A DNA stretch of 64,000 nt from a virus (lineage: Duplodnaviria > Caudoviricetes), in the IMG/VR virus record IMGVR_UViG_2786546892_000017; one strand, written 5' to 3'. Within the stretch, counting starts at the first letter, position 1. Every line of letters begins with the position of its first letter. Under the pieces are notes generated by a model. It ran no database searches. It was given only the letters and a program-made list of their open reading frames with translations, and was not told the origin of the DNA. Of the stretch, positions 3,960-25,201 are shown piece by piece. Both the position numbers and the translations under genes were made by a program.

Positions 3960-3984
3960 GGGCAACACCTCAGTTTGTGCCGGG

Positions 3985-4008
3985 AACGTGCCGCCCGTTC
4001 GGGAACTA
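3985..4008 (-). promoter_or_regulatory. class II promoter (tail fibre operon)
   Basis: TAGTTCCC-N10-CACGTT. Confidence 0.8.
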
Positions 4009-4710
4009 CGCCGCCACCAACCGCCCCTCCTCCTCCACGTCAGCCGTCGAAGACGCGGCGCGACGATACACCAGCGGGGCGATCGGCTCGAATAGCCCCA
4101 GCCGGCGCCACACCGCGTAATGAGCCAATGCCGCTTCCTTGGAAATGAAGAGGCTGCACGGCACCGGCTGGACCGCGCGGGAATACCGCCCGTGCTCCCC
4201 CCGCGGGTGGTCCAACGGCTGATACCCCCGAGAGACGGGCGGCAGTACGACTTGCGGCACCCCCCAGACATGAGCCACCAGCCGGAAGCCCCGCTTCGCC
4301 AGAACCTTCCGGCCCCGCTCATTGCAAACCACAACATCCGGGTTACCCCGCACCCGTTGAATCTCGTAGGTGCAGATCTCCCGGCCCCGATACACGGCCA
4401 CCCAGTTCGGCCCGTAGTGATACCGGCACCAAAGGACGAGGGCATTGACGGCCGCGATAACGCTGGGGTAAGTGCCGAACTTCTTCTTGGTGAAAGGGTC
4501 GGCCACGCGGAAGGTGGTGCCCTCCGGACGCCGGTAGATGTGGTGGTATCCGATGTCCGCAATGGGATCTGAGTTGCGGAACTCGTCCCGCTCGGCCTGC
4601 GTGATGCGTGCGTTGCCTGAGTGAGCCAATGAATACGACGACACGTCCGCACCCCCGTGATAGAATTCACGTGAGGCGGTTGCGTTGGGCCGGGGGAACT
4701 TGTCCGGCAA
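4006..4710 (-). CDS. putative DNA-binding protein, AP2-like N-terminal region
   Basis: HIYRRPEGTTFRV...KKFGTYPSVIAAVNAL resembles the AP2 beta-sheet plus G.y.s..A helix; similar to 56230..56826. Confidence 0.45.
   Translation of the reverse strand: MPDKFPRPNATASREFYHGGADVSSYSLAHSGNARITQAERDEFRNSDPIADIGYHHIYRRPEGTTFRVADPFTKKKFGTYPSVIAAVNALVLWCRYHYGPNWVAVYRGREICTYEIQRVRGNPDVVVCNERGRKVLAKRGFRLVAHVWGVPQVVLPPVSRGYQPLDHPRGEHGRYSRAVQPVPCSLFISKEAALAHYAVWRRLGLFEPIAPLVYRRAASSTADVEEEGRLVAA
4611..4622 (-). promoter_or_regulatory. class I box without -10
   Basis: ACTCAGGCAACG inside gene 4006..4710, no TAnnnT at +8. Confidence 0.5.
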
Positions 4711-4743
4711 AGACTCTCCCCCGGCCTCTCTTCTTGTCCCGTG

Positions 4744-4767
4744 ATTATGTTTGCGAGGTGGGAACTA
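4744..4767 (-). promoter_or_regulatory. class II promoter (AP2-like gene)
   Basis: TAGTTCCC-N10-CATAAT. Confidence 0.65.
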
Positions 4768-5373
4768 CCGCTCCCCGTCGTCCGTCATGTGCTCCCTGAG
4801 CATCCCCACCGCCTCGCCCATCAACTGATCCACTCGCCCCTGCGTCAGTCCCATGATCGTCGCCGTCGTCTTCTTGCTGGCCGGGTCGCCACCGATGCCG
4901 GCCCGCAGTTTCACGACCGTTCGATGCGGCTCCGGGAGATATCGAACTGCCTCGCGCAACTGAACCATCTCCCCCGCCGCGTCCAGCTCCGCTTCGCCGC
5001 TCGCCCGCTGGTCGGCTAGCCCTTCCCACCCGTCGTCGTCGTCCTTCGTCTCGACAAACTGTTTGCCTGTTCGATCGTAGAACCTGACCAGTTCGACGAT
5101 GGCCCCGCGGATAAACTTTGCCGCGTAGGTGTCGACCGTCTCGCCCCACCCCGGCTGCCAAGTCGCCGCCGCCTCGCACACCGCCTGAAGCACCGCCGCA
5201 TTGACTTCGTCCCGCCGAAAGTGCCAGTGCGGGGCGTAGACCATTGCCGCGACCTTGGGTGCCAGCATCTTCAGAATGGCCAGCGGCTCGGGATAGCGGC
5301 GGTAGAAGTCCAAGACGAGCTGTTGCTGGTGCTCGCTGAGGGTCGGCGTGGGGCGTGGCGGGGGCGTGTCCAC
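4765..5373 (-). CDS. phage sigma-70 family RNA polymerase sigma factor (regions 2 and 4)
   Basis: AAATWQPGWG..DTYAAKFIRGAI (region 2) and LPEPHRTVVKLR...MGLTQGRVDQL (region 4). Confidence 0.85.
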   Translation of the reverse strand: MDTPPPRPTPTLSEHQQQLVLDFYRRYPEPLAILKMLAPKVAAMVYAPHWHFRRDEVNAAVLQAVCEAAATWQPGWGETVDTYAAKFIRGAIVELVRFYDRTGKQFVETKDDDDGWEGLADQRASGEAELDAAGEMVQLREAVRYLPEPHRTVVKLRAGIGGDPASKKTTATIMGLTQGRVDQLMGEAVGMLREHMTDDGER

Positions 5374-5417
5374 CAGTGGGTGGGACTCCGGACGGGGATA
5401 GTTTCGCGTGTTGGTGG

Positions 5418-5443
5418 ATTCTAGCGTGGGGCGTTGCCTGAGT
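5418..5443 (-). promoter_or_regulatory. class I promoter (drives sigma 4765..5373)
   Basis: ACTCAGGCAACG-N8-TAGAAT. Confidence 0.8.
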
Positions 5444-10464: not shown

Positions 10465-10488
10465 AATGTGGGGTCCGCGGGGGAACAC
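10465..10488 (-). promoter_or_regulatory. class II promoter variant
   Basis: GTGTTCCC-N10-CACATT-N6-ATG. Confidence 0.7.
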
Positions 10489-10495
10489 TGTGAGC

Positions 10496-10521
10496 ATCCT
10501 AACGAGGTCCGTTGCCTGAGT
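10496..10521 (-). promoter_or_regulatory. class I promoter
   Basis: ACTCAGGCAACG-N8-TAGGAT. Confidence 0.75.
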
Positions 10522-10525
10522 GAGA

Positions 10526-10549
10526 TAGTGCCCACGAACCGGCCACATT
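10526..10549 (+). promoter_or_regulatory. class II promoter variant
   Basis: TAGTGCCC-N10-CACATT-N7-ATG. Confidence 0.75.
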
Positions 10550-10556
10550 CGGGGGC

Positions 10557-11780
10557 ATGGCAGAACTGGAAAGCGAAGAAATCGGCGGCGACGACCTGTT
10601 CCCCGGCGTGCCCAGCTCGGGCTCCCCGGCGTCGTACATTTTGCCCGAGCCCGACCCCGCCGATAATTTCGACGCGGATACCAATTGGTCCGAGCAAGTC
10701 ACCGGCAACGAGGCCCCGGGCGGCGGGTCGTCTTTTAGTCGCGACGAGGGGAATGCGGGGTTGTACGGCTATGTACCGTACAACATGGTTCGGACCGCCG
10801 TAAGAGACATGGTCGGGTACTGTTGGGCCGACCAAGGGCCGCCTTGGCAACTCCACCGCGTCAACCCGTGGCAACACCCGGACTTCCCGTGGATGCGGTG
10901 CCAAAGTGTTCACGTGCAACCAGTTAACCCGTGTGGAGGTCCGAGTCAGGCGGACCCGACAACCAACGTGATCTGGACCAATTCGGCGGCCACGACGGCG
11001 CCTCAGTGGTCGAGCGCAGCGACGGCGGCCGTGCGCCCGAAGCGGCAGATCAACTACACGCGGGCCGCGTGTACCCTGAGCTTCAAGCCGTTCCCGTACG
11101 TCTTCTTGGAAGACGCGGATATGCAGGCGTATGGGTTGAAGGAGTATTATCGTAACTGTGATAGATTTTCTAGTATAGACCCGGCCCTCACGACGTTGAT
11201 GGCCTCGGCTACTCCGTTCATGACTTTTTTGGAGGGTCTGGACAACTCCACACCCGGCAAGCCGCTGACCAGTTTTACGCCGCCGCAGATGTTTCAAGGT
11301 GATTTGTACGAGCTGCTATGTCAAACGGATCTGGTCTTGGCATGGTACGGGGTGCCGTTGGATTTTGTCTGCGACCCCTACCTTCCGAGCAAAATCCTTG
11401 CATGTGTAGGCACGGTTAACATTAATGATCAGTGGCTGAACGTGTTTCCCAAAGGCACGTTGTTGCTGAATGCCCCACACATTAGAAAATCAATACAGAA
11501 CGTCTGGACAACACCGAACACGATTGGCTTCACAGTCGACGTGTTTTTCCCGTTCAAATTTTTCAATCCAACAGCTGGCGTTATGCTGGACTACCAGGAC
11601 GGACGAACCTCATCCCTGACTCAACCGGTTTTTAACGGGCACAATTTGTTCCCGCTCGGGACGACTGGCAGATACTATTCGGCCGCCAGAAAGAACAAGA
11701 ATACCCAGCAGGGAGATCCGACAAAGCCACTGATTTCATTCAGCGATTTCGACACGATGTTCGCACATGTGAAATCGTAG
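10557..11780 (+). CDS. putative tail hub/structural protein, inverted relative to other virion genes
   Basis: 407 aa W/P/N-rich; lies between tape measure and tail-tip genes; own class II promoter, leaderless. Confidence 0.55.
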   Translation: MAELESEEIGGDDLFPGVPSSGSPASYILPEPDPADNFDADTNWSEQVTGNEAPGGGSSFSRDEGNAGLYGYVPYNMVRTAVRDMVGYCWADQGPPWQLHRVNPWQHPDFPWMRCQSVHVQPVNPCGGPSQADPTTNVIWTNSAATTAPQWSSAATAAVRPKRQINYTRAACTLSFKPFPYVFLEDADMQAYGLKEYYRNCDRFSSIDPALTTLMASATPFMTFLEGLDNSTPGKPLTSFTPPQMFQGDLYELLCQTDLVLAWYGVPLDFVCDPYLPSKILACVGTVNINDQWLNVFPKGTLLLNAPHIRKSIQNVWTTPNTIGFTVDVFFPFKFFNPTAGVMLDYQDGRTSSLTQPVFNGHNLFPLGTTGRYYSAARKNKNTQQGDPTKPLISFSDFDTMFAHVKS

Positions 11781-11785
11781 CCACT

Positions 11786-11811
11786 ACTCAGGCAACGCCA
11801 CCCGCTACAAT
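11786..11811 (+). promoter_or_regulatory. class I promoter
   Basis: ACTCAGGCAACG-N8-TACAAT. Confidence 0.8.
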
Positions 11812-11816
11812 TCCCT

Positions 11817-11911
11817 TGACGACCAGCGCGGAGTAGCTACCGCGCGTAAACCTTCCGGCCGGCACTGCGGGTTGCGTTCCCCTGTGGTGTCGGCCGGAGG
11901 GCGGGTCGTTA
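11817..11911 (+). ncRNA. conserved structured 5' leader RNA, copy 1
   Basis: near-identical to reverse complement of 17266..17359; three helices; compensatory change CGCGG/CCGCG vs CACGG/CCGTG. Confidence 0.65.
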
Positions 11912-11926
11912 CGAGGGAACGCACGA

Positions 11927-12177
11927 TGAGTGGAGATACTCCTGGCACCGAGACCGATGTCACGTGCCCGCAATGCGACAAGCAATTCATCTGGGTTGTC
12001 CCGTCCCCACCGCCGGTCCCAGAATCCGGACCGTGGCAGTTGCGAAAATCGGGCGACGTGTGGGTCGTCTGCCCAAAATGTAAATACACCTTCCCAGGCA
12101 ACCTGCCTTTAGAAATCAACAAGGGGATCAAGTGGCCGCAACCGAAACTGACGGACAACCCGGGCGAGCAAAGTTGA
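11927..12177 (+). CDS. small zinc-ribbon protein
   Basis: GAGGG RBS; CPQC and CPKC pairs. Confidence 0.55.
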
Positions 12178-12647
12178 TCGCGCGATTACCCGGCCCGGCG
12201 GAAGCCGCATACCACGCCACGGCTATCAAGACCGTCGAGCAAACCGTCCCCACGCTGAACGATTTTTTGGGCAAGATGGTCACGCTCAACGCGGCCCTCC
12301 TCGGCGGCGGCTTCTTGGTGGCCAAAGGCGACGTGCTACCGATTTGGTGGGGTATCCTTGTGATGATCTCGCTTCTGATTTCGCTGAGCGTGGCACTCTG
12401 GGGGTTAATGCCAGAGCGGTCGAACGTAAACTTGGACGCGAGGGGCGGGTTGGAAGCCTACCGAGAATTTGATAACAAGTTGATCGCTAAGAAAGATTGC
12501 GCCATCCAAGGGAGCGCCGCCGCGATAATTGCAGCGTTCGCGATCGGGGTCGTGGGGCTGGCGGTCAAGGCTTGGCCGAGCGAGACAACCGCCACCCAGA
12601 CTACGGCCGAGCGAGTCAAAGCCGACGGCCACCCGACCGGGAAGTGA
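12132..12647 (+). CDS. 3-TM membrane protein (Pycsar-effector/DUF5706-like layout)
   Basis: three hydrophobic segments, WGLMP after TM2, KK before TM3. Confidence 0.55.
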   Translation: MAATETDGQPGRAKLIARLPGPAEAAYHATAIKTVEQTVPTLNDFLGKMVTLNAALLGGGFLVAKGDVLPIWWGILVMISLLISLSVALWGLMPERSNVNLDARGGLEAYREFDNKLIAKKDCAIQGSAAAIIAAFAIGVVGLAVKAWPSETTATQTTAERVKADGHPTGK

Positions 12648-12674
12648 GGGTCGGGCGGCAGAGGCGACCAATTA

Positions 12675-12896
12675 TCAGATAGACCCCGCACCTATCCCCC
12701 GCTGAAACCCTTGGATCGACCGATGCCGGAAGGTCAAAGGCTCGATCTTCGCCCCGCCGTGCTTCGCCCACACGACCGGGGCGATCTCGGCGAGGGCCAA
12801 CGCCACCCCGATCCGGTCGTGGGCCGTAATCGTCTGCTCCATGAAGTCGGCCACCTTCTTCACCCGCTCGTCCAACGTCAGTTCGGGGTCGGGCAC
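12675..12896 (-). CDS. hypothetical protein
   Basis: 73 aa ORF downstream of class I promoter 13013..13038. Confidence 0.5.
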   Translation of the reverse strand: MPDPELTLDERVKKVADFMEQTITAHDRIGVALALAEIAPVVWAKHGGAKIEPLTFRHRSIQGFQRGIGAGSI

Positions 12897-13012
12897 CGCG
12901 GGCAGGTGCCCCGAGTGGCCCTTGGCGCACGGCTGCTGGGGGAGTTAGCATTCGGGGACGAAATTCGTCGTCATGTGTTGCGGCCTCGCGGAATGGGTGT
13001 GGGTACGCGGGC

Positions 13013-13038
13013 ATTGTAACGTGGGGCGTTGCCTGACT
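13013..13038 (-). promoter_or_regulatory. class I promoter
   Basis: AGTCAGGCAACG-N8-TACAAT. Confidence 0.8.
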
Positions 13039-13041
13039 CAG

Positions 13042-13461
13042 CTACCACGCCGGCCATCTACCCCAAATCTCGCGGCCGATCAGATATGTCGCACTCCCGG
13101 CGAGGAAGGCGTGCGGCCAATACCTCGCGGCCGATTCCAACTGGCTCATCCGCGGTTGTTCGTCAATTTCTCGGGGCTTGTAACACTGCTCCAGATCAGC
13201 AGCAAATCCGCCATGGCAAGTAGGGCATTCGACCAACGCGGGCGGGCTAACGCCATCGAGGTGGTAGGCTCTCACGACTAATTTCGCGCGGCACGCTGGG
13301 CAGTCGGCAAGAATCTCCACACCGGCTGCTGGGAAATGCTCGGGTCTGGCTGCCATACTCGCTTCCATCACGCTTTCCCTGACGATTCCGGCGCACGCCA
13401 ACATCCTACCACCCGCCGTTGCCTGAGTGGGACGACGCCGGCCCCCGGGAAACTGAAACAC
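13042..13461 (-). CDS. zinc-ribbon protein (true start probably near 13370)
   Basis: CPAC and CPTC pairs; class I promoter at 13403..13428 implies a later start. Confidence 0.45.
   Translation of the reverse strand: MFQFPGGRRRPTQATAGGRMLACAGIVRESVMEASMAARPEHFPAAGVEILADCPACRAKLVVRAYHLDGVSPPALVECPTCHGGFAADLEQCYKPREIDEQPRMSQLESAARYWPHAFLAGSATYLIGREIWGRWPAW
13403..13428 (-). promoter_or_regulatory. class I promoter
   Basis: ACTCAGGCAACG-N8-TAGGAT. Confidence 0.8.
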
Positions 13462-13478
13462 CCTCCGGGGGCGATTCG

Positions 13479-13757
13479 CTAGATGTCACCCGGGCCTTCA
13501 TATGGGCTCCAGGCCAACACCTTCGGTCGGTCCAATTTCACTTCTGTGGCCACGACGTGAACACAGAGGAATGTCCTCGTTCCCATGAGCGACAACGCCT
13601 CCTCCTCAGTGCGGGCAACCACGAAGACACGGGCCTCACCATCCCAACTGTCGGTCCCGCCTTCGTCACCGTCGGGGTCTTTCGAGCCGATGATGTAAAG
13701 ATTGTAGGTGCCCATGCGATGGGGTCTCCGTGGGTGTGGGGGTAGAAAAGAAGACAA
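13479..13757 (-). CDS. hypothetical phage protein
   Basis: YII...DSWDG..VFVVARTEEEA pattern common in small phage proteins. Confidence 0.5.
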   Translation of the reverse strand: MSSFLPPHPRRPHRMGTYNLYIIGSKDPDGDEGGTDSWDGEARVFVVARTEEEALSLMGTRTFLCVHVVATEVKLDRPKVLAWSPYEGPGDI

Positions 13758-13844
13758 CCGTAGCGATCGCCGTTACGGTTGTGATTGCCTCACGGCCTTT
13801 TTACCGGTATCGGTAAAATGTAGATGCAACTGTATGTCCGCAGA

Positions 13845-14591
13845 CTAGTTCCGCATCCCGGCCAGATCCGAGAACAGGTTCCGTGCGGGTGGCGACTGCC
13901 GTTCGGCCGCGATCACTTCGTCCATGATGCGGTCAATGGCGTCGTCCAGACAGTTCACCTGCGGGCCGTCCCACACGAGCCACCCGCCGACCTTGTCGGG
14001 CACCTCGCCGAACCGCAGCAGCAGGAGGTGACTGGCGAGCCGCGAGATCTTCCCCCGCTGCTTCGTGGTGGTCGTCAGCCGCCGGTGGTGGCAACGCTCG
14101 GCCACGGTGAACCGAGTGATGGAGCGGACCGAACGGCTGTGGTCGATCGCCGCCATGACCTGCTTGACCGTTTCGATGACGATGAGGGCGATTTGCTGGG
14201 CGGTCATCCCGGACGGCGTCGGCTCCTGTTTCGGGCCGAAGAAGTGGGCGTGCAAGACGTCGGCACATTCGTTTTGATACAGCTCGATTTTCTTGACCAG
14301 TTCGGGCTTGTCCTTGGCTACGCGGTTCACGTCCAACGTCGCCAGCCACATGGCCACCCGCTCCCGGGGGATCATCACGGCTTCCTGCTCGTGCCCGCGG
14401 GCGTCTCGTATCAAGATCATCTTGATACGAGCCCACGGCTTCTTCTTCAGCCGCTCCTGTTGCCCCTGCGGTGAAATGCTGAACGACTCGCACACGCGGC
14501 GCACGGAGACGAAGATTTCCCCGTCATCCAGTTTCACGGCGTCGATCACGTCGTCGTGAAACTTCACCGGCACCAACTCATAACCAGCCAT
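13845..14591 (-). CDS. phage antirepressor (P22 Ant N-terminal domain)
   Basis: VPVKFHDD..IFVSVRRVCE...WLATLDVNRV...IELYQNECADVLHAHF. Confidence 0.85.
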   Translation of the reverse strand: MAGYELVPVKFHDDVIDAVKLDDGEIFVSVRRVCESFSISPQGQQERLKKKPWARIKMILIRDARGHEQEAVMIPRERVAMWLATLDVNRVAKDKPELVKKIELYQNECADVLHAHFFGPKQEPTPSGMTAQQIALIVIETVKQVMAAIDHSRSVRSITRFTVAERCHHRRLTTTTKQRGKISRLASHLLLLRFGEVPDKVGGWLVWDGPQVNCLDDAIDRIMDEVIAAERQSPPARNLFSDLAGMRN

Positions 14592-14643
14592 GTTGCCGAT
14601 CCTCAGAAGGTAAGTAATCAAAACCTTCCCACACTCGCAATGC

Positions 14644-14669
14644 ACTCTAGCTACCTGCGTTGCCTGAGT
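14644..14669 (-). promoter_or_regulatory. class I promoter (antirepressor)
   Basis: ACTCAGGCAACG-N8-TAGAGT. Confidence 0.8.
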
Positions 14670-14740
14670 GCTCATCCGGCAGATCGCACCCGATAAACGA
14701 GAAGACCCCGCCGGGCACGCAGCCAAGCGGGGTCGCACTC

Positions 14741-15088
14741 TCACACCATCACCGACCGATACACCTGCGGCCCCTGCCTGCCGCTGCAGCCCAACCCGTC
14801 CGCCATTGTTCGGCGGTCCCGTTCGTGCCAAAGTTCCTCGCGGTTCGCCACTCGCCTCCGCAACTCCTCTACCCTCTCGGCCGATCCTGGATCTGCCTCG
14901 CACGCTCTGGCCGCGGGTTTCGTCTCCCGAATTTTGGCCCCGAAGGTGGTCGGCCGAGTCACGGACCCCGCAGGGTACATCGCACGTACATTCGGTTTCG
15001 CGTGGCATGGATGGCAAAGGCGCCGCGGTCGAGTGATCTTCCGTTTCTTGCAGTGCCGGCAGGGGTCAACGATGGGGGTTGTCACCAC
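14741..15088 (-). CDS. hypothetical protein with CxxC pairs
   Basis: CRHC/CHPC; ADPGSAERVEELRRRVANREELWHERD motif. Confidence 0.55.
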   Translation of the reverse strand: MVTTPIVDPCRHCKKRKITRPRRLCHPCHAKPNVRAMYPAGSVTRPTTFGAKIRETKPAARACEADPGSAERVEELRRRVANREELWHERDRRTMADGLGCSGRQGPQVYRSVMV

Positions 15089-15459
15089 GTCGCACCGGCC
15101 CTCTCGCCGATCTCTTCGGCCATGCGGTCCATCTCGTCAGCCGTCATCGGGTCCGAGTCGGGCATGTCGTCGAGTAGTCCGTCGATCTGCCGGGCCGTCC
15201 GCCACGCGACCACCGATCGACGGATGCGGGCTTCTAAAGCCATTGACAGACCATGCTCGCCGTACTGAAGGCTGGAAGCGGGGGCGGACAGGATTGATTC
15301 CCGAACTACCTGCTGGACTTCCGCGACATCCTCACCGATGGCAACCAGCATGCGGCCGAACCGCTCGACGAAATGCCCGGCGTACTTCAGAAAAGAATGT
15401 GCGCGTGCGGATTCCGACCGCGGATTGCCCCGCGGTAACAAATGCGATACACTTTCCAT
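15082..15459 (-). CDS. hypothetical protein
   Basis: 125 aa ORF overlapping the next gene. Confidence 0.45.
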   Translation of the reverse strand: MESVSHLLPRGNPRSESARAHSFLKYAGHFVERFGRMLVAIGEDVAEVQQVVRESILSAPASSLQYGEHGLSMALEARIRRSVVAWRTARQIDGLLDDMPDSDPMTADEMDRMAEEIGERAGATW

Positions 15460-15565
15460 CGAACAACTCCGTGTAGAGCAGAGGGGTTCACCGGCTCTCG
15501 GGCGTGGACAAGACGCCCGAGAGCCTTGAGAACGATCCGTGTTGCACCACAGACCGTCCGGGAAA

Positions 15566-15587
15566 AGTGTAATTTATAAATTACACT
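15566..15587. promoter_or_regulatory. perfect 22-bp palindromic operator candidate
   Basis: AGTGTAATTTATAAATTACACT is its own reverse complement; lies between divergent genes upstream of an Xre gene. Confidence 0.7.
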
Positions 15588-15613
15588 GATTCAATCCCAG
15601 AAGGTCGATTCCC

Positions 15614-15847
15614 ATGATTTTTGTGGCCAAGAAAAAGAGCAGCGAGGCAACACCGTTCGGCCGCAGGCTTCGCGAAAAGCGTGTGGCGGCAGGACTTTCG
15701 CAGCTCGCATTGGCTGAAAAGATAGGGATGTTGCGGCCCGTGATCGCCAAGTTGGAAACGTCTCCGGACGCCAATCCAACCCTGGACACAATTAAGTCAC
15801 TGGCCGCCGCACTTGATGTGAATCCCGCGGATTTGATCGCGGACTGA
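15614..15847 (+). CDS. Xre-family HTH regulator
   Basis: FGRRLREKRVAAGLSQLALAEKIG...NPTLDTIKSLAAALDV. Confidence 0.9.
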   Translation: MIFVAKKKSSEATPFGRRLREKRVAAGLSQLALAEKIGMLRPVIAKLETSPDANPTLDTIKSLAAALDVNPADLIAD

Positions 15848-15881
15848 TTCTCTCGGGCGGCCCACTCAGGGGACCGCCACC

Positions 15882-16367
15882 ATGCCACGTGATTACGACG
15901 ACGATGACAGCAGCGTTGACTTGCCCCGCCGCAAACCAAAGTCCGCCGGGATACCCGTGTGGCTAATGCTACTCCTCGGCGCCGCCGCCGCGATGGTCCT
16001 TGTCTGTGGGGCGGGGATGCTGCTGTTTGTGATCGGCCTGGGCGGGGCAGCGCGACAGGTTGCAGTGGAACAGAAAGTCCAAGAAGATAATGCGACGGCC
16101 GCTGCCAAGCAAGCCAAACTCGATGCAGACAAGGACAAGGGGACCGCGCCGGCCACAATGACGCGGGAAGAGTTTATGCGAGTCATTGACCGGAAAACTG
16201 AAAAGGAAATTATTGCCCTACTTGGCCGCCCAGAATCAACGGACTTGCATTCTGACGGATCAACATGGCGGTACATGCACCGAACGGTCGACTCGATTTC
16301 TGGGAAAACGGACTACAGTGTCCACATTCGTTTTGTTGACGGTGTGGTAAACAGCGTCACGTTCTAG
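15882..16367 (+). CDS. membrane-anchored protein with SmpA/BamE-like C-terminal domain
   Basis: DDDD..PRRK then TM; EIIALLGRP...WRY...F.DGVV. Confidence 0.65.
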   Translation: MPRDYDDDDSSVDLPRRKPKSAGIPVWLMLLLGAAAAMVLVCGAGMLLFVIGLGGAARQVAVEQKVQEDNATAAAKQAKLDADKDKGTAPATMTREEFMRVIDRKTEKEIIALLGRPESTDLHSDGSTWRYMHRTVDSISGKTDYSVHIRFVDGVVNSVTF

Positions 16368-16405
16368 CCCCCGCATCTCGCCCACCGCCCTCCCCCACCC
16401 GACCC

Positions 16406-17002
16406 TTACTTCCCGGTCGGGTGGCTATCGGCTTTGACCCGCTCGACCGGCCCGACTTCGGGAACCGCCACCGTCTTCACCTTCGCCCGCTGTTCGACGA
16501 TCGCACAAGCCAGCGGAACCGCCAGCAGTCCGACGGAACACGCCGACAGGATGGTCGCCACCATTAGCAACCGGGCCTTGCGGTCGCAGCCGAATAGCGT
16601 TAGGGCGGTGGCCAACACCCATTGGCCGGCGAACGCGACTTCCCCGGTCTCCGTCAGGTCCGCCGCGTACCGCGCGGCCAGCGTAACTGATGGTCTGTAC
16701 ACGGTGCCGACCTGCCGCACGAGTATGCCGTACACGATGGACGCGATGGCGCACGCGAACGCCGGCATGATCCCGATGGCCGTGGCAGGCCCGATCTTCC
16801 CCTCCGCGATGCCGGCGATCGCCCCGACCACGACAAGCCCCGCGCCCCCGCTGAAATAGCCGATCAACGCTGCCGCCTTGACGTCCAGGTCGTCGAACGT
16901 CTTGAGAGCGTAGGCGTGGTCGTCCTTGGCAGCCTGGAGCACCCACTTGTGGTCGACGCCGGGGAGCGGGATATAAGACGCTGCCCATGCCTCCGCGTGC
17001 AT
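16406..17002 (-). CDS. 3-TM membrane protein (Pycsar-effector/DUF5706-like layout)
   Basis: LDVKAAALIGY before TM1, KARLL before last TM; C-terminus shared with 12132..12647. Confidence 0.6.
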   Translation of the reverse strand: MHAEAWAASYIPLPGVDHKWVLQAAKDDHAYALKTFDDLDVKAAALIGYFSGGAGLVVVGAIAGIAEGKIGPATAIGIMPAFACAIASIVYGILVRQVGTVYRPSVTLAARYAADLTETGEVAFAGQWVLATALTLFGCDRKARLLMVATILSACSVGLLAVPLACAIVEQRAKVKTVAVPEVGPVERVKADSHPTGK

Positions 17003-17031
17003 CGCGGGCGACCACTCTCTGAGAATCGAGT

Positions 17032-17175
17032 CTATTTCGGTGGGAACCCCCGGCGGAATGGAACCGGCCGCTGCTCCCGGGGTGGGACCGGCGGGGAGGA
17101 TGGCGGAGGAGGCGGAGGAGGGGGACTGGATGGCGGCGGGGGTGGCGATGACGGGGCTCCCGATGACTGGCTCAT
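17032..17175 (-). CDS. 47-aa proline-rich peptide
   Basis: AGGA RBS; MSQSSGAPSSPPPPPSSPPPPPPPPSSPPVPPREQRPVPFRRGFPPK; below ORF-track cutoff. Confidence 0.5.
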   Translation of the reverse strand: MSQSSGAPSSPPPPPSSPPPPPPPPSSPPVPPREQRPVPFRRGFPPK

Positions 17176-17265
17176 TGGCGTTCCTGAGAAGTAACCACGC
17201 TCAGCACCAGATAGCTAATCCGGTTGTCGTGGCGCCCACCATCATACGCCAAAACGCCCGCATTG

Positions 17266-17359
17266 TAACGACCCGCCCTCCGGCCGACACCACAGGGGAA
17301 CGCAACCCGCAGTGCCGGCCGAAAGGTTTCACACGGTAGCTACTCCGTGTTGGTCGTCA
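17266..17359 (-). ncRNA. conserved structured 5' leader RNA, copy 2
   Basis: inverted near-copy of 11817..11911, directly downstream of class I promoter. Confidence 0.65.
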
Positions 17360-17365
17360 CGGGAG

Positions 17366-17391
17366 ATTGTATCTGGTGGCGTTGCCTGAGT
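17366..17391 (-). promoter_or_regulatory. class I promoter
   Basis: ACTCAGGCAACG-N8-TACAAT. Confidence 0.8.
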
Positions 17392-17437
17392 GGATCAACC
17401 GCTGATCGTCCGGAGGAGGAATTCCCGGGCCACTCTG

Positions 17438-19594
17438 TCACCGCCGCCCCACGATGTGCCTATCAAGCATTTCCCGGGCAGCCACCCCCACAGCACCACC
17501 CGTCGCTGCGGAGACGACGCCACTGACGACCGAGCCGCCTGTACCGCCGATCGCACGGCCCAACGCCGTGGCCAAGGGCTCGATGTATTTGCCTTCGACA
17601 AAATAGTCTCGTAATTCTTTGATCCGTACACCTATTTCCGCGGTGGTGGAAGCTATCTTGACCTCCGGCTTCTCGCCGCCAGCTTGTCCAATCCCGAAAC
17701 TTGACTCTCTGGCCTTGCGAATAACGTCATCGACAGATCCCGTCGAAACATTCCGAACGCCCTTACCCTCACTCGCCCCCTTCGTGTCGGGCGTTTCAAC
17801 ACTCTTGATGCCGAAGAATGCGTTCACGGAGTCGACAAGGTACTTGATGCCGTCTGCCACGGCTTTCACGAATCGCGCGAACGTCGAGGCGGCGCCCAGG
17901 ACGATGTTCTTCAGCAGGTTGAAGGTCGGGGCGAGTGCGTCCCCGATCGAGCTGACCAGCGGGCCGACGGAGTTGGCCAAGGCGCTGAGCGTGTCGCCGA
18001 TCGAGTCGAATGCGTCTCCCAAGGCGACCACCGATGGCTTGATCACGGCAATGATGCCGTCGAACACGCCCTTGACTATGCCGACGATTGACGTAAAGGC
18101 ATTGGCTACGCCGGAAATGATCCGCATCGCGATTCGCAGCGGAGCGGTCAGGGCGTTGACAAAAACCGATTGCATGTACGCGACGACCGGCTGGGCGACC
18201 GACATGATAGTATCGAATGCCGTCTTCATGGGAGACAAGAGGGCGGTGACGACATCCCCGATCGCCGTGACGACTGCCGATAGTACGTCAAAGACCACGG
18301 AAAGAGGGGCGAGGAGCATCGTCACAATTGGGGCCAGTGAAGCCAGAACGGACACAATCGGTTTGATGAGAGAGAGAACCGACAGGCTGAATTTCTGGGC
18401 CGCGACTCCGACCGTGATGAGCGTCGGGAGAATACTGCCGATGGCCGGGGCGATACTCTCGATCACGTTGACGAACAGGCTGATGGCGGTATCCACGTTC
18501 TTCAGGACCGCCCCGGCGCCGGTGGTCGCGATCTGAGTGAGCGTGTCGATGATGGGCGTGATGGCGGTGACGACGCGAGTGAACCCCGCCCCGAGTGCGT
18601 CGAGGACGACTTTCATCACCCCGGACAGTTTGCTGAAGATGGGTTGGAGTTCGGCCAGCGGTTTGGTTGCGGCCGCCATCACTCCCAATCCAACGGCAGC
18701 CCCCGCGATGCCGCCCAACAAAACCGAGAGTCCGCCCGTTGCGGTGCTAACAACTGATGAGAATACGCCAGTTACGGCGACAAGGGCGCCCATCCCCGTG
18801 GCCGCAGCCGCGAGTGCGGCCACCAACGCCTTGCCCTTTGGTGAAAGCGAGGCCAGTGAATCCGCCACGGCGCGCACAAGGGCAGTCGCGGAACCCATCA
18901 CGGGTAGCAACGCCTCGCCTATCGACGCGCGCAGGTCCAGCACAGCGAATTCAAACCCCTTCACGGCGGTCGGCGAAAACGCCGCGACGTAAGACGCGAT
19001 GTTGCTTTGGATGGAGCCAGTTAGCGAGTTGAGCCCGTTCGTGATCCCGCTGAAAAGTTGGGGCGCCCGTCCGAGCCCGGTTGTGAACTTCGAGTATTGG
19101 GTCGATACAACTCCGAGACCTTTTTGGAGCTGCGCCAGGGTGCCGGTTTGGGCTTTCACTTCGGCGTTGGCCTTGGTTCCTCCGGCCGTCAGTTTCTGCG
19201 TGTTGGCGACCAGCATCGCCATTTGTACGTTCGCAGGTTGCAATGCGGCGGCGATCGGCGTGACGTTCGCCAGCAGCTTCGCCACAGGGGGCGGGGACGA
19301 TTGGTTTGCTCCGGACCCAGAGGGAGTCGCACCCGATTGTGTTTGCGACCCGGTGCCCAGGCTCGGCGCCGCCTTGCCGACGTTGGCGAAGAAATTCGAG
19401 ATGGCCGATGTCAATTTGGCCAAAGGGTTCAAATTAGCAGCCGCGGACATGAGTTTGCCTAGCCCGTTGGCGAGCTGGACTATCCGCACATCGAGCGGGG
19501 TGGTGAGTCCCGCTAAAGGGTTCTTTGTCGACGACTGGCTCGGCGCAGGAGACTTCGGCTGGTTCGGTTTCGGTTGGCTTGGCAGCGGGGGCAT
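17438..19594 (-). CDS. tape measure protein
   Basis: 718 aa A/V/L/I-rich amphipathic helical repeats following tail tube and chaperones. Confidence 0.85.
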   Translation of the reverse strand: MPPLPSQPKPNQPKSPAPSQSSTKNPLAGLTTPLDVRIVQLANGLGKLMSAAANLNPLAKLTSAISNFFANVGKAAPSLGTGSQTQSGATPSGSGANQSSPPPVAKLLANVTPIAAALQPANVQMAMLVANTQKLTAGGTKANAEVKAQTGTLAQLQKGLGVVSTQYSKFTTGLGRAPQLFSGITNGLNSLTGSIQSNIASYVAAFSPTAVKGFEFAVLDLRASIGEALLPVMGSATALVRAVADSLASLSPKGKALVAALAAAATGMGALVAVTGVFSSVVSTATGGLSVLLGGIAGAAVGLGVMAAATKPLAELQPIFSKLSGVMKVVLDALGAGFTRVVTAITPIIDTLTQIATTGAGAVLKNVDTAISLFVNVIESIAPAIGSILPTLITVGVAAQKFSLSVLSLIKPIVSVLASLAPIVTMLLAPLSVVFDVLSAVVTAIGDVVTALLSPMKTAFDTIMSVAQPVVAYMQSVFVNALTAPLRIAMRIISGVANAFTSIVGIVKGVFDGIIAVIKPSVVALGDAFDSIGDTLSALANSVGPLVSSIGDALAPTFNLLKNIVLGAASTFARFVKAVADGIKYLVDSVNAFFGIKSVETPDTKGASEGKGVRNVSTGSVDDVIRKARESSFGIGQAGGEKPEVKIASTTAEIGVRIKELRDYFVEGKYIEPLATALGRAIGGTGGSVVSGVVSAATGGAVGVAAREMLDRHIVGRR

Positions 19595-19632
19595 AAACCA
19601 ATCTCCGACACGTTACGCGGTACTACCCGGTG

Positions 19633-19656
19633 AACGTGTCGGAGAAAGGGGAACCG
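19633..19656 (-). promoter_or_regulatory. class II promoter variant (tape measure)
   Basis: CGGTTCCC-N10-CACGTT. Confidence 0.65.
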
Positions 19657-19668
19657 TCTGTATCGCGG

Positions 19669-20241
19669 CTATTCGCTCGCGGGTTCGTCGTAGTTCTTTT
19701 CGGCCGTCTCGATGGCGATGCGAATATCTTCGGGGTCTGCTTTGATGGCGGTGCCCAGTTCGTTGAACAGATGGGGCACGATGGCTTTCATGGCGGAGCG
19801 CAACCCCGGCGGATTGTCGGCCGCCATGCCTACCACGTCTTCGTAGGTCATTTTCGGGTGGTTGGCTTGAAACAGTGACAGGACGTACAGGATGACTCCG
19901 GCCTCGCGATTCTTGCCGTTCCGGTATTCCACCCACAGAGGGCGACCGGGCTTCTGTTCCCCCATCATCATGCGGCGGGAAAGTTGGTCGACCTTCTCGT
20001 CGTATTTAGCCTGGTCGACGAACCCCGCCGCCAATTGGCCTCGGATGGCCCCGATTTCTTGCTTGATGAGCAGATCTTCAAACCGTTTGGAAGCGGCGCC
20101 GCCCGGTTGCCCCATTTGGTAGGTTTCGCCGTTCCACTCGACCGTTGCGAGCGGCGAGACGATTTTTTCGGCGGAACCTGTTAGCGCATGAATCTGGTCG
20201 TCAGCCACAAGATACCCTCGCGTGCTTGCTGTCGGTAACAT
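19669..20241 (-). CDS. tail assembly chaperone (probable GTG start near 20208)
   Basis: position before tape measure; paralogous to N-half of 20267..21094. Confidence 0.6.
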   Translation of the reverse strand: MLPTASTRGYLVADDQIHALTGSAEKIVSPLATVEWNGETYQMGQPGGAASKRFEDLLIKQEIGAIRGQLAAGFVDQAKYDEKVDQLSRRMMMGEQKPGRPLWVEYRNGKNREAGVILYVLSLFQANHPKMTYEDVVGMAADNPPGLRSAMKAIVPHLFNELGTAIKADPEDIRIAIETAEKNYDEPASE

Positions 20242-20245
20242 CTGG

Positions 20246-20269
20246 AAGGTGTCAGTAAACAGGGAACTA
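20246..20269 (-). promoter_or_regulatory. class II promoter
   Basis: TAGTTCCC-N10-CACCTT. Confidence 0.8.
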
Positions 20270-21094
20270 ACTGGTCACAGGAACCGGCCCGTAGGCAGCA
20301 ATCCATTTCTCGGTGTAATCAGCATGACACTTCTCAGCGTCCGCCACCTTCCAGCCATCCTTCATAAGTCCATTGACCATATCCCGCTTGGGAACGTAGG
20401 CTTCGGACTCATCGGGTCGACCAGGTTCCATCAGTGGCGGCAACCCCTTCCGATCTCGCTCAATTTGTTCGGCCCGCTTGCGGTTCGACCGGATGTATTG
20501 ATGTTCGATCTGGTAGTCCGTCAACGTGGCGTATTCGGACGGGTGCCAGGCGTAAGGCTCCAGGCAAAACATTTCGTAGAGATCGAGCGGGTTGAAGCGA
20601 TATGCGCGGGCAACGGCTCCGGGTGGCATCGCGTCTGTTTCGCTACTTTGCTTCGCAACGTCCGAATGAGGGATGAGGCAAGCAATTGCCAGCCGCACGT
20701 CCACCCGACAATCCGCACAGATCTCCACAGCATCAGCGACCGATAAATCCGGATGACGGTCGGTAAGAAGCGACCACACGAACAAAACGTCGCCGACCTG
20801 CGAACAATCCCCGGACGAATATCGTTCCCAAAGCGGACCGCCCGTCCGATGGTCACCAGATTCCACGCGGGCGATACACGCCTCAATCTTTTCGTCGTGT
20901 ATCGCCCGCGAAATCCAGCCGTCCCGAAGCTGTTGTTTAACCAACCGTTTTTCCGCTTCAACAACTGCGATTTCAAATCGTGCTTTTGCCGCTTGGGTCG
21001 GGTGGCCAACGTGGCAGACGACCCCACGCCACTCAATAGTGGGACATGGGCCAGCATTGCCCAAAGACTGGAGGATAGATGGGATACGATTCAT
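20267..21094 (-). CDS. tail assembly chaperone, long (G-T-like) form
   Basis: N-half aligns with 19669..20241; C-half W.P.EYATLTDYQI typical of gpT-like extension. Confidence 0.55.
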   Translation of the reverse strand: MNRIPSILQSLGNAGPCPTIEWRGVVCHVGHPTQAAKARFEIAVVEAEKRLVKQQLRDGWISRAIHDEKIEACIARVESGDHRTGGPLWERYSSGDCSQVGDVLFVWSLLTDRHPDLSVADAVEICADCRVDVRLAIACLIPHSDVAKQSSETDAMPPGAVARAYRFNPLDLYEMFCLEPYAWHPSEYATLTDYQIEHQYIRSNRKRAEQIERDRKGLPPLMEPGRPDESEAYVPKRDMVNGLMKDGWKVADAEKCHADYTEKWIAAYGPVPVTS

Positions 21095-21110
21095 TCGCCA
21101 CCTCGGCTGT

Positions 21111-21599
21111 TCACATGCCGTTGGTCACGTTCGGCAGTGCCCCGGACCCGACCGCCGTGAAGCTGAACGCCCCCGGGTTGCCGGTCGTCCCGTCCACGTC
21201 CTGGCTGCGGTCGGTGATTTTGGCCACGCACCCGTAGCGGCCGAGCGGCGACAGCTTGCTGATGATGAGGTCGAGCACGACGAACGCCCCGTCCGGGAAC
21301 TTACTGTCGGTAGTGCCCGCCGCGTCCGAGTTGTACGTCCCCGACACCTGCACCGACCAACTGGTGATGCCGCCCTGGAGCTGGTACTCGTACACGTTGC
21401 CGTACTCGCCGACCGGGTTCTCGAACCCGATGAACTTGCCACCGTCGGTCTTCGGCGCAACCGACCACTTGTTGATTTCGGCGTTGGGCAATCGGGTGAT
21501 GCTGCTCGGGGTGATGATCGGCAGATCCGTACCCGTTTGATACGCCACCAGCCCGGACGAAAGCCGCCCGCTCGTCCCGGCCCAAATTGTAAATGCCAT
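21111..21599 (-). CDS. major tail (tube) protein
   Basis: 162 aa; INKWSV...GGITSWSVQVSG...FSFTAVGSG. Confidence 0.7.
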   Translation of the reverse strand: MAFTIWAGTSGRLSSGLVAYQTGTDLPIITPSSITRLPNAEINKWSVAPKTDGGKFIGFENPVGEYGNVYEYQLQGGITSWSVQVSGTYNSDAAGTTDSKFPDGAFVVLDLIISKLSPLGRYGCVAKITDRSQDVDGTTGNPGAFSFTAVGSGALPNVTNGM

Positions 21600-21649
21600 G
21601 TCGAATCCTCCCCACCGAAACGATGGGCTTATTTTTCAGGAGGGGATGA

Positions 21650-22165
21650 TTAGTGGACGCCCGCGAACACGACGGTGACGACCGCCGCGTTGGATGAGTC
21701 GTTGTTCGTGATTCGCACGGTGTCCGATGTGCCGCTCGCCACGGTGAACCCGGCCGCACTCCACCCGGAGAGCGGGGGGCCGCCCGAGTTAATGCTCCAG
21801 GTGTTGCCAACGGCCCCGAAGTTCAACGCGATGGGATGGGTGGGGCCGGTGCCGCCGATCGTGATGCTGGACGCCCCGCCGGCCGCGAGGATGATCGTGT
21901 ACCCTTTGACCGTGGACAGCCCGGCGACGGTGGCGCCGAACATGTCCGTCAGCGACCCGCTCAGCGTGATGTCCTGGGTGCCGCTGGCCGCGATCGTGTA
22001 CGTGATCGGGACGATGGTGTTCATCTGCCCGGACGAGGTGCCGAACGCCAGAGTCGAACTGCCCGACTGCGTGTTGGCCGACGTCTGATTCGGGAGAAAC
22101 GCGGTGCCGGCCGCAGTGCCGTTGATGCCGACGCTGCCCGATTGGTTAAATGTCCCGCCGATCAT
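21650..22165 (-). CDS. virion structural protein
   Basis: G/S/T-rich beta protein in tail cluster, class II promoter. Confidence 0.55.
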   Translation of the reverse strand: MIGGTFNQSGSVGINGTAAGTAFLPNQTSANTQSGSSTLAFGTSSGQMNTIVPITYTIAASGTQDITLSGSLTDMFGATVAGLSTVKGYTIILAAGGASSITIGGTGPTHPIALNFGAVGNTWSINSGGPPLSGWSAAGFTVASGTSDTVRITNNDSSNAAVVTVVFAGVH

Positions 22166-22191
22166 TCTTGGGCACCTCTGTGTGTGCCCCG

Positions 22192-22215
22192 AACGTGCCG
22201 CCGAGATGGGAACTA
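22192..22215 (-). promoter_or_regulatory. class II promoter
   Basis: TAGTTCCC-N10-CACGTT. Confidence 0.8.
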
Positions 22216-22692
22216 CGGACCCGTACGAAGTGCCTGCACGGAATAGTCGAGCGTCACCTTGAACACGTACCCAATCGTCTCGGTCCGCGTCGTGTCCGTC
22301 ATTCGCCGCTGCTTCGGTGGGAGAATGGTTTCAATCGTCTGGCCGGTTACGGGGAGGCTGGTACACCAGTCGAACCCTTGGGCCGCGTTGTACGCCCCGG
22401 CCCCGAACCGGATGCCCAAAGCGATGGCATCCGCCGCCGCAAGGCTCAGGGCATAGATTTCGAACGTGAAGTCTGTGGTCTCGATCACCTCGTACTCGAA
22501 GGTCTGGAAGGACGGGGTGGTACCGTTGTCCTTCAGGAGCACGTAGGGCGGCTTGTACGGGTTCCCGCTGCCGTCCTTGGCCGGCACCTCGTCAAAGAGG
22601 ATGGGGACGGGCGGACTCGGCGGTGACGGGGTGGCCACCGGGAGGGACTGGTAGAACTCGACGATGGCGCCGATGATGGAAGTGGATGGCAT
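22213..22692 (-). CDS. tail terminator/completion protein
   Basis: leaderless start MPSTSII; PPYVLL...FTFEIYA.S...A..IA pattern. Confidence 0.65.
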   Translation of the reverse strand: MPSTSIIGAIVEFYQSLPVATPSPPSPPVPILFDEVPAKDGSGNPYKPPYVLLKDNGTTPSFQTFEYEVIETTDFTFEIYALSLAAADAIALGIRFGAGAYNAAQGFDWCTSLPVTGQTIETILPPKQRRMTDTTRTETIGYVFKVTLDYSVQALRTGP

Positions 22693-22699
22693 GCCCCGG

Positions 22700-22723
22700 A
22701 AGGTGACGGGGGGCGGGGAACTA
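22700..22723 (-). promoter_or_regulatory. class II promoter
   Basis: TAGTTCCC-N10-CACCTT-N7-ATG. Confidence 0.8.
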
Positions 22724-22978
22724 GCGGCGGTGGCGACGGGGCTTCTGTGCCCCATGCACCGGCTGACTCCGTCTGTTAACCCCACGGTGCGGACGGTCCA
22801 GCGACACATAAAAGTTCTTCCGGCACACTTCCGCCCAATGTTCGCGGTTGCCACGGCCGGAAGGCGGGATCGGTCCGTCATCGAGATCGGCGTCAGGGTC
22901 GCAGGTGTACGCCTCTTGGCGGTAATCGATGTAGTCTTCCCACTGTGACCAATACCCATAATCGCGGATCATCCCCAT
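22721..22978 (-). CDS. hypothetical protein
   Basis: 85 aa; stop codon is the TAG of a class II box. Confidence 0.45.
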   Translation of the reverse strand: MGMIRDYGYWSQWEDYIDYRQEAYTCDPDADLDDGPIPPSGRGNREHWAEVCRKNFYVSLDRPHRGVNRRSQPVHGAQKPRRHRR

Positions 22979-22981
22979 TCC

Positions 22982-23362: not shown

Positions 23363-23369
23363 GACCCGG

Positions 23370-23393
23370 AAAGTGGGGCGGGGGCGGGAACTA
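23370..23393 (-). promoter_or_regulatory. class II promoter
   Basis: TAGTTCCC-N10-CACTTT-N7-ATG. Confidence 0.8.
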
Positions 23394-23705: not shown

Positions 23706-23748
23706 GCTGGTGTTGGCGAAATCACCGACGAAATCAATCGAGGAACAC

Positions 23749-25195: not shown

Positions 25196-25201
25196 GCTCG
25201 G

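Follow-up and report, generated by a model that had tools for sequence, protein, structure and literature searches.

The question raised by this locus is whether two sigma factor genes lying about 52 kb apart in one prophage, each followed by a small gene, govern two classes of phage promoters that are switched on in succession. The locus lies in a stretch of 64,000 nucleotides (nt), referred to here as the window, which is the IMG/VR virus record IMGVR_UViG_2786546892_000017 (Caudoviricetes) and corresponds to G000:C20:163704-227703, that is, to part of contig C20 of a 12.4-Mb host genome in 20 contigs. The original prediction held that both small genes encode AP2-like proteins and that the two sigma-partner pairs are wired as a cascade. 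We found a phage-private two-class promoter system with two phage sigma factors and one tandem-AP2 partner, which we consider real and unusually clean. The cascade itself, in which early transcription would yield sigma 1 (with the AP2 protein), sigma 1 would act on class I promoters, class I would yield sigma 2 and sigma 2 would act on class II promoters, is to us the best reading, although its chances of being right are only about even.

All four open reading frames (ORFs) of the two pairs were found where they had been predicted, on the minus strand and each in the frame of high GC content at the third codon position (GC3). Among the regulatory genes of the early operon, that for sigma 1 (56848..57540, minus strand; 230 amino acids, aa) comes last and lies downstream of the genes for ThyX (57604-58422) and a dCTP deaminase (DCD; 58765-59457). 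Its product, a member of the sigma-70 family, scored 33.6 bits against Pfam Sigma70_r4 (PF04545; cut-off 24.1), 18.6 bits against the corresponding region 2 family (r2; below the cut-off of 24) and 53.3 bits against TIGR02937 (above the cut-off of 42.9; residues 64-222), and it matched the sigma family phrog_351 of PHROG with an expectation value (E) of 5.9e-15. Sigma 2 (4765..5373, minus strand; 202 aa) is a divergent member of the same family, with 26.8 bits for Sigma70_r4, 12.2 bits for r2 (again below the cut-off), and a phrog_351 match at E 2e-8; its TIGR02937 score of 35.6 bits lies below the cut-off, with E 6.6e-9 over residues 50-196, nearly the full length. Each protein passes the Pfam region 4 cut-off. 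Both genes are assigned to the sigma-70 family, and their products are predicted to bind core RNA polymerase and to direct initiation at specific promoters. The claim that they have an N-terminal motif in common was borne out as well: the two proteins align at 25% identity (E 2e-8) with the motif in register, and they are, as judged from this alignment, paralogues. The motif, Q(Q/R)(L/I)V..F...(Y/W)P.P, recurs in two other proteins described below, a paralogue from contig C19 and a relative from a metagenome; to judge by where it lies, region 2 probably begins with it. Regions 2 and 4 of sigma 1 are more RpoD/RpoS-like than those of sigma 2. Scans of IMG/VR with each sigma returned 0 relatives, sigma 2 had no match at E<=1e-8 in 150 genomes of the host family, and tblastn with all four proteins against 50,697 records of GenBank phages returned only a bacterial RpoS in one record.

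The promoters assigned to class I have the form A(C/G)TCAGGCAACG-N8-TAnnnT on the gene strand. Their box, CGTTGCCTGAST, occurs in 18 exact copies in the window, compared with 0.52 expected, and none of 100 shuffled sequences reached this number. Seventeen of the 18 boxes are followed by a TAnnnT -10 element, with a spacer of 8 nt in 16 cases and of 7 nt in one. A G at -14, two bases before the TA, is present in all 17 sites with the 8-nt spacer (16 window sites and one just left of the window; the site with the 7-nt spacer was excluded from this count). If transcription is assumed to start 6-7 nt past the -10 element, the box covers about -32 to -21, and it ends 8 nt before the -10. Throughout C20:150000-245000 every class I box is a perfect 12-mer, without one-mismatch intermediates inside the prophage; the 12 bp are invariant in 19 of 19 prophage copies (18 promoters and the box at 4611-4622), the choice of C or G at the second position being the only variation. 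No -35-like hexamer was found at 16-18 nt. In 4 of 18 sites a start codon lies 6-7 nt past the -10. When the pattern was searched for as a regular expression in the entire genome, 17 of 18 matches fell inside this prophage, and the 26-nt class I pattern, present 18 times in this genome, was absent from all 251 other genomes of the host family (its reversed control gave one match).

Class I sites precede the genes for a Clp_N protein, a VWA-like protein and a P22 antirepressor-N protein, the operon of an 835-aa GT2 glycosyltransferase, and sigma 2. The promoter of sigma 2 (5412..5443, minus strand) reads ACTCAGGCAACG-N8-TAGAAT, with its box at 5432-5443 and 44 nt to the GTG start, which is the arrangement that had been predicted. 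The rightmost class I promoter (54760..54792, minus strand) reads AGTCAGGCAACG-N8-TATGAT and lies 33 nt from the next ATG. To the right of 54792, as far as C20:245000, there are neither class I nor class II sites, barring two incomplete look-alikes, and the box at 4611..4622 (minus strand), inside the coding sequence of partner 2, is indeed the only class I box of the prophage that lacks a -10.

Some further class I elements were observed. Two back-to-back pairs pointing in opposite directions are located at 23649-23691 and 47923-47964, their box starts being separated by 31 and 30 nt. Outside the prophage there is one complete class I promoter (L022, G000:C9:238793-238818, minus strand), before a 118-aa ORF and adjoining a ParB-like/DNA-methyltransferase gene, and further bare boxes are found at C9:335739, C9:372559, C2:347049 and C12:31938.

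Class II promoters have the form TAGTTCCC-N10-CA(C/T)N(T/A)TC. The string GGGAACTA occurs 13 times where 0.90 would be expected, and the element CA(C/T)N(T/A)TC stands exactly 10 nt after the box in 11 minus-strand copies of the window. These, one site just left of the window and one plus-strand site with one mismatch make up the 13 class II sites, all 13 of which keep the 10-nt spacing; plus-strand copies of TAGTTCCC at 2110 and 44959 were dropped because the second element is missing. Ten of the 12 genome-wide matches to the class II pattern are in this prophage, and the other two are on contig C19. An ATG lies 2-5 nt past the downstream element in 7 of the 13 sites, where a Shine-Dalgarno sequence is impossible; sites of this leaderless-type layout are found at 20244-42029 and 10526-10559. 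In at least five sites (4008, 4767, 22215, 42029 and 52390) the preceding gene ends on the TAG of the box, which makes for a very compact layout.

The genes behind class II sites are those for the terminase (52390), the portal (42029), the head operon including the major capsid protein (31642), the tape-measure and tail genes (25225-20269; 10526 on the plus strand), partner 2 and the tail-fibre region. The prediction that partner 2 is under class II held, the site being of a variant type (4734..4767, minus strand; TAGTTCCC at 4760-4767, then N10 and CATAATCA) whose TAG is the stop codon of sigma 2. In the same manner, the promoter before the genes of the tail-fibre region (3983..4008, minus strand) reads TAGTTCCC-N10-CACGTTCC, with a TAG on which the coding sequence of partner 2 stops. 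The remaining promoters of the window, 15 of class I and 10 of class II, are spread over 10487..54792. One tandem arrangement was noted beyond the left edge, where a class II and a class I promoter, 69 nt apart, precede one 182-aa gene (G000:C20:162939-163040, window -764 to -663); the prophage therefore reaches past that edge.

Every class I and class II site is faced by a co-oriented gene start. Where the start codon lies 2-5 or 6-7 nt downstream, transcription would start where the promoter would put it, and the spacing of these close-start sites is, on the sequence, the geometry of leaderless transcripts. The two classes have the same short geometry, about 17-18 bp from centre to centre. 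Both are predicted promoters, private to the phage, in numbers far beyond chance, and, as in a cascade of the SPO1 type, the distinct classes stand before distinct gene sets.

The gene 21 nt downstream of sigma 1 (56230..56826, minus strand) encodes partner 1. Searched alone, this protein had no Pfam match at E<=1, and a word-indexed search found only the protein itself. An exhaustive HMMER search returned 80 proteins at E<=1e-3, aligned over residues ~10-135. Of these, 76 were aligned together with the query (77 sequences), the self-hit P0002, the long multi-repeat proteins P0059 and P0079, and P0065 being omitted. The members of this family are compact, free-standing proteins of two domains and about 130-200 aa; Pfam AP2 (PF00847) was matched at E<=0.01 by 3 of the 77 members, and a nuclease domain was found in none of the 77 scanned, nor in partner 1. 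When the family profile was compared with the PDB, AP2/ERF proteins were the top four of five matches, namely WRI1 (E 3.1e-4, over both repeats), ERF096 (0.0026) and AtERF1 (0.053 and 0.054). The AlphaFold2 (AF2) model built from the 77 sequences has a predicted local distance difference test score (pLDDT) >90 over about residues 15-135. It shows two beta-beta-beta-alpha units joined by a helix (strands E and helices H: E21-25, E28-34, E42-48, H51-63; E95-98, E101-108, E111-118, H121-133), which place the domains at about residues 17-63 and 92-133, followed by a disordered tail rich in W and R. The best Foldseek match of this model was DNA-bound WRI1 (PDB 7wq5; E 3.7e-3, prob 0.97), none reaching E<=0.001. 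In an exhaustive fold alignment with 48,161 chains the three highest-ranked chains were all AP2 domains, those of TEM1 (Z 5.9), WRI1 (Z 5.6) and AtERF1 (Z 5.2), with root-mean-square deviations of 3.8, 6.3 and 2.5 over 70, 107 and 50 residues, respectively; these Z values are modest for a small domain, and a Z below 8 can mean merely a common arrangement. Leads from the ESM Atlas agreed with AP2. The main weight of the assignment comes from sequence and fold pointing independently to AP2, and partner 1 is well supported, by profile and model, as a tandem AP2/ERF-like protein. From the near-invariant R22, Q30 and R32, which sit in its strands, we infer that it binds DNA in a sequence-specific manner. 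The protein ends in F-G-E-G-W-Q-W-E-K (56230-56260), and its closest relative, P0003, in F-D-T-G-W-S-W-E; such a short conserved tail after a disordered stretch is possibly a docking peptide.

AP2 domains are familiar above all from transcription factors of plants, and among the plant AP2/ERF factors the double-AP2 WRINKLED1 (WRI1) is the nearest known counterpart of partner 1. The two have in common two beta-beta-beta-alpha domains with a helical linker; WRI1 is the best match by both profile and Foldseek and spans both partner 1 domains in the exhaustive fold alignment, and the Arg/Gln/Arg/Trp strand pattern of partner 1 aligns with the strands that contact DNA. Partner 1 is unlike WRI1 in its identity of ~18-20%, the lack of a Pfam AP2 match, its prokaryotic-virus context, an extra N-terminal RRHxC motif and its W-rich tail.

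Among the 251 other genomes of the bacterial family, a profile search located a gene of the partner 1 family in 19; a sample of 400 genomes from across the phylum, searched with the AP2 profile A2, yielded none. We scanned 27 distinct AP2-family places together with as much as 6 kb of flanking sequence on either side, 243 kb in total, in six frames with a sigma hidden Markov model (HMM) that had been iterated on the ORFs of this genome (140 hits collected). Neighbouring genes were called crudely from GC3 and sometimes on the wrong strand; the sigma count did not use these calls, and the Pfam counts are lower bounds. A sigma ORF lay within 500 nt of the AP2-family gene in 5 of the 27 places, arranged convergently in one, divergently in one, with sigma leading into AP2 in one and with AP2 leading into sigma in two. 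All five adjoining sigmas matched TIGR02937 (E 3e-10 to 2e-17), three of them above the cut-off, and the sole other match of the sigma HMM in the 243 kb was a weak helix-turn-helix 2.6 kb off. The pairing of AP2 and sigma genes is thus recurrent, not obligatory. A further pair is found on the metagenomic contig L019, where the gene for an AP2 homologue and a sigma gene whose product is 27% identical to sigma 2 share 4 nt, both genes diverging from the terminase genes; this divergence from the terminase is also seen in the IMG/VR relative L018, the contig of which ends just after the AP2 gene. Neither class I nor class II motifs were found in L018 and L019, and L019 has no repeated motif of any kind. 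Profile searches for AP2-family loci with smaller alignments gave 0 from genome contigs, one from IMG/VR (L018) and one from the metagenome (L019), and the family proteins P0006 and P0009 were not found in IMG/VR.

These data bear on the possibility that partner 1 and the gene after it are leftovers of an AP2 homing endonuclease, a selfish insertion standing beside sigma 1 by accident and having no role in transcription. That next gene (55556..56242, minus strand) overlaps the end of partner 1 by 13 nt, lies in an island of low GC content visible as a dip in GC3, and encodes a Cys-rich, zinc-ribbon-like protein in which CxC...CxxC units are repeated. The protein matched region 132-240 of phrog_374, annotated 'HNH endonuclease' (E 1.8e-9), and phrog_18493 (4.7e-10); a Pfam scan gave no match, nor was any nuclease family matched. 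The resemblance of zinc-ribbon repeats to parts of such enzymes, the AP2-type modules themselves, the HNH_3/NUMOD4 clusters among the ESM Atlas structural neighbours of partner 1, and earlier reports, in which phage AP2 domains are mostly in HNH endonucleases (PMC2248197, PMC1524935), all agree with a relic. Unlike the AP2-HNH endonucleases, partner 1 and the 77 members have no nuclease domain; the family is compact, two-domain and stand-alone, and its adjacency to sigma genes recurs. We consider an accidental relic quite improbable. As a separate observation, the gene for the Cys-rich protein follows that of partner 1 and precedes the first class I promoter; its product may be a third regulator.

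The gene downstream of sigma 2 (4006..4710, minus strand) encodes partner 2, of 234 aa (212 aa in the public gene call), in a coding frame that is supported. A search of 5.8 billion proteins for relatives of near length returned only the protein itself, and a search at shorter length returned none. One match in the 251 family genomes (E 6.9e-4) was rejected as spurious, as it fell in a host protease/toxin-antitoxin region with stops inside. Partner 2 matched nothing in Pfam or NCBIfam and had no similarity to partner 1 (E 0.39); hhalign against the partner 1 family gave E 0.074 and a probability of 0.8%, and the repeat HMMs gave at most 2.3 bits, which 8, 63 and 19 of 500 shuffles also matched. 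It was outside the top 10 of the 764 frames of the window for the AP2 family, and the internal-repeat test gave E 3.2. The single-sequence AF2 model had a mean pLDDT of 35.3 with no residue >=70, which is unusable for a fold search. Weak alignments of partner 2 fall at FGTYPSVIAAVNAL..., the pattern that had been seen in the original prediction; for an AP2 domain this is a hint, not evidence. Thus, of the two predicted sigma and AP2-like pairs, the first was upheld by profile and fold, and the second was not, the sequence tests having failed and the model having a pLDDT of 35. The feedback role suggested for partner 2 is speculation.

The position of both partner genes, directly downstream of a small sigma gene, is the classic position of an anti-sigma factor, and in the extracytoplasmic function (ECF) sigma/anti-sigma pairs, too, the gene for a small sigma of two domains is co-transcribed with that of the partner behind it. 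The partners might accordingly be read as anti-sigma factors or other sigma-binding modulators that keep each sigma in check, a reading for which partner 2, whose model gave no usable fold, leaves room. Unlike the ECF case, partner 1 has a fold of the DNA-binding type: it is basic, with two beta-beta-beta-alpha units and the AP2 Arg/Trp strand pattern, not a helical anti-sigma domain. The HxxxCxxC motif was seen by eye in neither partner, neither matches any Pfam or NCBIfam family, and among the relatives order and orientation vary, being reversed, divergent or convergent in four of the five related pairs and on L019. Partners that act on the sigmas in this way would be highly improbable.

A second integrative element in the same genome, with two tyrosine-recombinase-like ORFs read by eye, is located on contig C19 (L021, G000:C19:322000-340000; L009 1426-3467). 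It carries a homologue of sigma 2 (39% identity) and one of sigma 1 (31%); in the 630 nt that separate them lies an orphan ORF of 160 aa, which is similar neither to partner 2 nor to the AP2 family. Class II-like sites occur there twice, as TAGTTCCC-N10-CATCTT, and a tandem pair of class I boxes, separated by 31 nt, lacks a -10. The element could be a relative of the prophage, or a satellite listening to the prophage regulators. We counted the presence there of homologues of both sigmas together with both box types in favour of the cascade.

Transcription of the prophage would run from right (early) to left (late), as early-type genes lie to the right and virion genes to the left. According to the proposed cascade, early transcription would enter from the right, the side of the repressor and replication genes, and pass through the genes of nucleotide metabolism in a run that would end with sigma 1, the tandem-AP2 protein and the zinc-ribbon protein. 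Sigma 1 would then redirect the host core RNA polymerase to class I promoters, whose box A(C/G)TCAGGCAACG covers about -32 to -21 and whose extended -10 is GnTAnnnT, and the tandem-AP2 protein would most likely help by binding the long invariant box. An ordinary -35 element would be shorter, less invariant and farther from the -10 than this box is. Class I would turn on the accessory genes and sigma 2, and sigma 2 would read class II (TAGTTCCC-N10-CACyTTC, many of the sites leaderless), that is, the promoters of the terminase, portal, head and tail genes and of partner 2. The layout fits this wiring as predicted, with a class I promoter before sigma 2 and class II promoters before the packaging and virion genes, and the early operon closes with sigma 1 and partner 1, the first class I promoter following 2 kb further downstream. 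The analysis shows the genes, both motif classes with their positions and their restriction to the phage, the AP2 fold of partner 1 and the recurring AP2 and sigma neighbours; the matching of sigmas to classes, the binding of the AP2 protein to the box and the timing are what we infer. Scans around both sigma/partner pairs for consensus sigma-70 promoters and for terminators gave none above shuffles.

The RpoD/RpoS-like regions of sigma 1 fit the sigma-70-like extended -10 of class I, and on the sequence evidence we favour a scheme in which sigma 1 and the AP2 protein would act together on this class. Boxes without a -10 (that at 4611-4622 and the two on C19) suit a separate binding protein, and the box has about the size that a two-domain AP2 protein could cover, going by the size of the WRI1 site. 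A broader version, that the tandem AP2 protein is the promoter-recognition partner of a minimal phage sigma, reading a 12-bp box instead of a -35, and that this module recurs in phages and mobile elements of the family, is a tentative suggestion that we consider more likely wrong than right.

The same features of class I may be explained in another way: the host primary sigma would read class I through its sigma-70-like extended -10, an AP2 activator bound to the box would replace the -35 contact, as at the promoters of Mu C, P2 Ogr or T4 MotA, and the phage sigmas would serve only class II or other promoters. The good TAnnnT -10 with its G at -14 and no -35-like hexamer, the box that stays invariant in 19 copies at -32 to -21, and the three boxes without a -10, which suit a stand-alone protein site, are all compatible with this, and the late promoters of phage Mu, as described in one report (PMC2582627), have -10 hexamers and no typical -35. 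However, sigma 1 would then be left without a target though the first class I promoter lies directly downstream of it, and the recurrence of the AP2 family beside sigma genes argues for joint action. We regard reading by the host sigma as rather unlikely.

It is also conceivable that the sigma-to-class assignment is reversed or overlapping, for instance with sigma 2 autoregulating via class I or with both sigmas reading both classes together with different partners. The common geometry of the classes, the paralogy of the sigmas, the sigma-2-like gene on C19 that is flanked by class II-like and not class I sites, and the tandem class II and class I promoters before one gene just left of the window would all accommodate such an assignment. 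Since the region around sigma 1 has no site of either class and sigma 2 is preceded by a class I promoter, a scheme in which sigma 2 alone serves class I cannot start. This assignment seems to us improbable.

Returning to the proposed cascade with an AP2 partner, several observations weigh against it. Partner 2 cannot be called AP2-like. The C19 element is without an AP2 homologue and has retained its boxes, so the AP2 protein is not needed for box persistence there. The TAGTTCCC boxes on C19 are identical to those of the prophage, yet the sigma-2 homologue differs in the presumed recognition helix of region 4.2; region 4 of sigma 2 may therefore not read TAGTTCCC. Sigma 1 bears an RpoD-like RERVRQ helix, and neither box is TTGACA-like. 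No sigma lies within 6 kb in 22 of the 27 AP2-family places, and the excess of adjacency (5 observed, 0.64 expected, binomial P about 4e-4) comes from a test that uses the sigma density of this genome only, with related genomes overstating the independence of the cases.

In the Bacillus phage SPO1, gp28 serves the middle genes and gp33/gp34 the late genes, and the late step needs two adjacent phage genes. The present system is like SPO1 in having phage proteins of the sigma-70 family that would act in turn, each with its own promoter class. It is unlike SPO1 in that it belongs to a temperate prophage of an unrelated high-GC host with no relative in the GenBank phage records, in that the partner is a tandem AP2 protein and not a small gp33-like cofactor, and in its unusually short promoter spacing. 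A switch from early transcription by host sigma A to a phage sigma is described in another report (PMC13401047). With regard to activators, the class I promoters resemble the targets of T4 MotA and of Mu C and P2 Ogr in that a good -10 is combined with a conserved box nearby instead of a normal -35, the box being read by a phage DNA-binding protein for which there is here a candidate. In T4, the middle promoters combine a MotA box at -30 with a sigma-70 -10 and involve AsiA, and Mu C and P2 Ogr are late activators. Unlike these phages, which use the host sigma, the prophage has its own sigmas; its box has 12 invariant bp and a distance of 8 nt to the -10, and the candidate reader has an AP2 fold, not the MotA double wing or a zinc finger. 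At the level of abstracts, the literature search gave no paper joining AP2 domains with phage sigma factors, none on prophage sigma factors in this bacterial group, and no description of AP2 genes recurring beside small sigma genes.

The window, with a GC content of 62% and nearly all genes on the minus strand, is most of a prophage of ~80 kb in total, which is tailed as judged from the identification of its modules. These comprise the large terminase (50101-51750), a portal protein of 1241 aa (38274-41999) with a C-terminal domain of the 2'-5' RNA ligase superfamily (PF13563, E 5.8e-10), the major capsid protein (28447-29910), the tape measure (17438-19594) and a tail-fibre-like protein (660-2360). 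To the right of the window, primase/helicase-like, repressor-like (with a GDSM peptidase motif) and antirepressor-like ORFs were read by eye, without a family search. The class I operon at 5937-10548 encodes the 835-aa protein, whose GT2 glycosyltransferase domain is N-terminal, and a 697-aa protein, the gene for which contains a long GT-rich, imperfectly repeated stretch of DNA at 8704-9066.

Phage sigma cascades are textbook matter, and to our knowledge they come from a handful of lytic phages of model hosts. The prophage described here would offer a complete example of a cascade that can be read from sequence, in a large, poorly studied high-GC bacterium and with about 30 near-perfect promoter copies. 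The leaderless layout of most of its late promoters is a direct lead on translation initiation in the host. If the AP2 protein and the sigma act together, bacterial and viral AP2 domains would have a regulatory function and not one in homing endonucleases only, and bacteria with few genetic tools would gain a compact, orthogonal set of promoters and sigma factors. If the AP2 protein is indeed a promoter reader, this would be the first transcriptional role of AP2 domains outside eukaryotes, and it may give a view of what these domains did before plants and apicomplexans recruited them.

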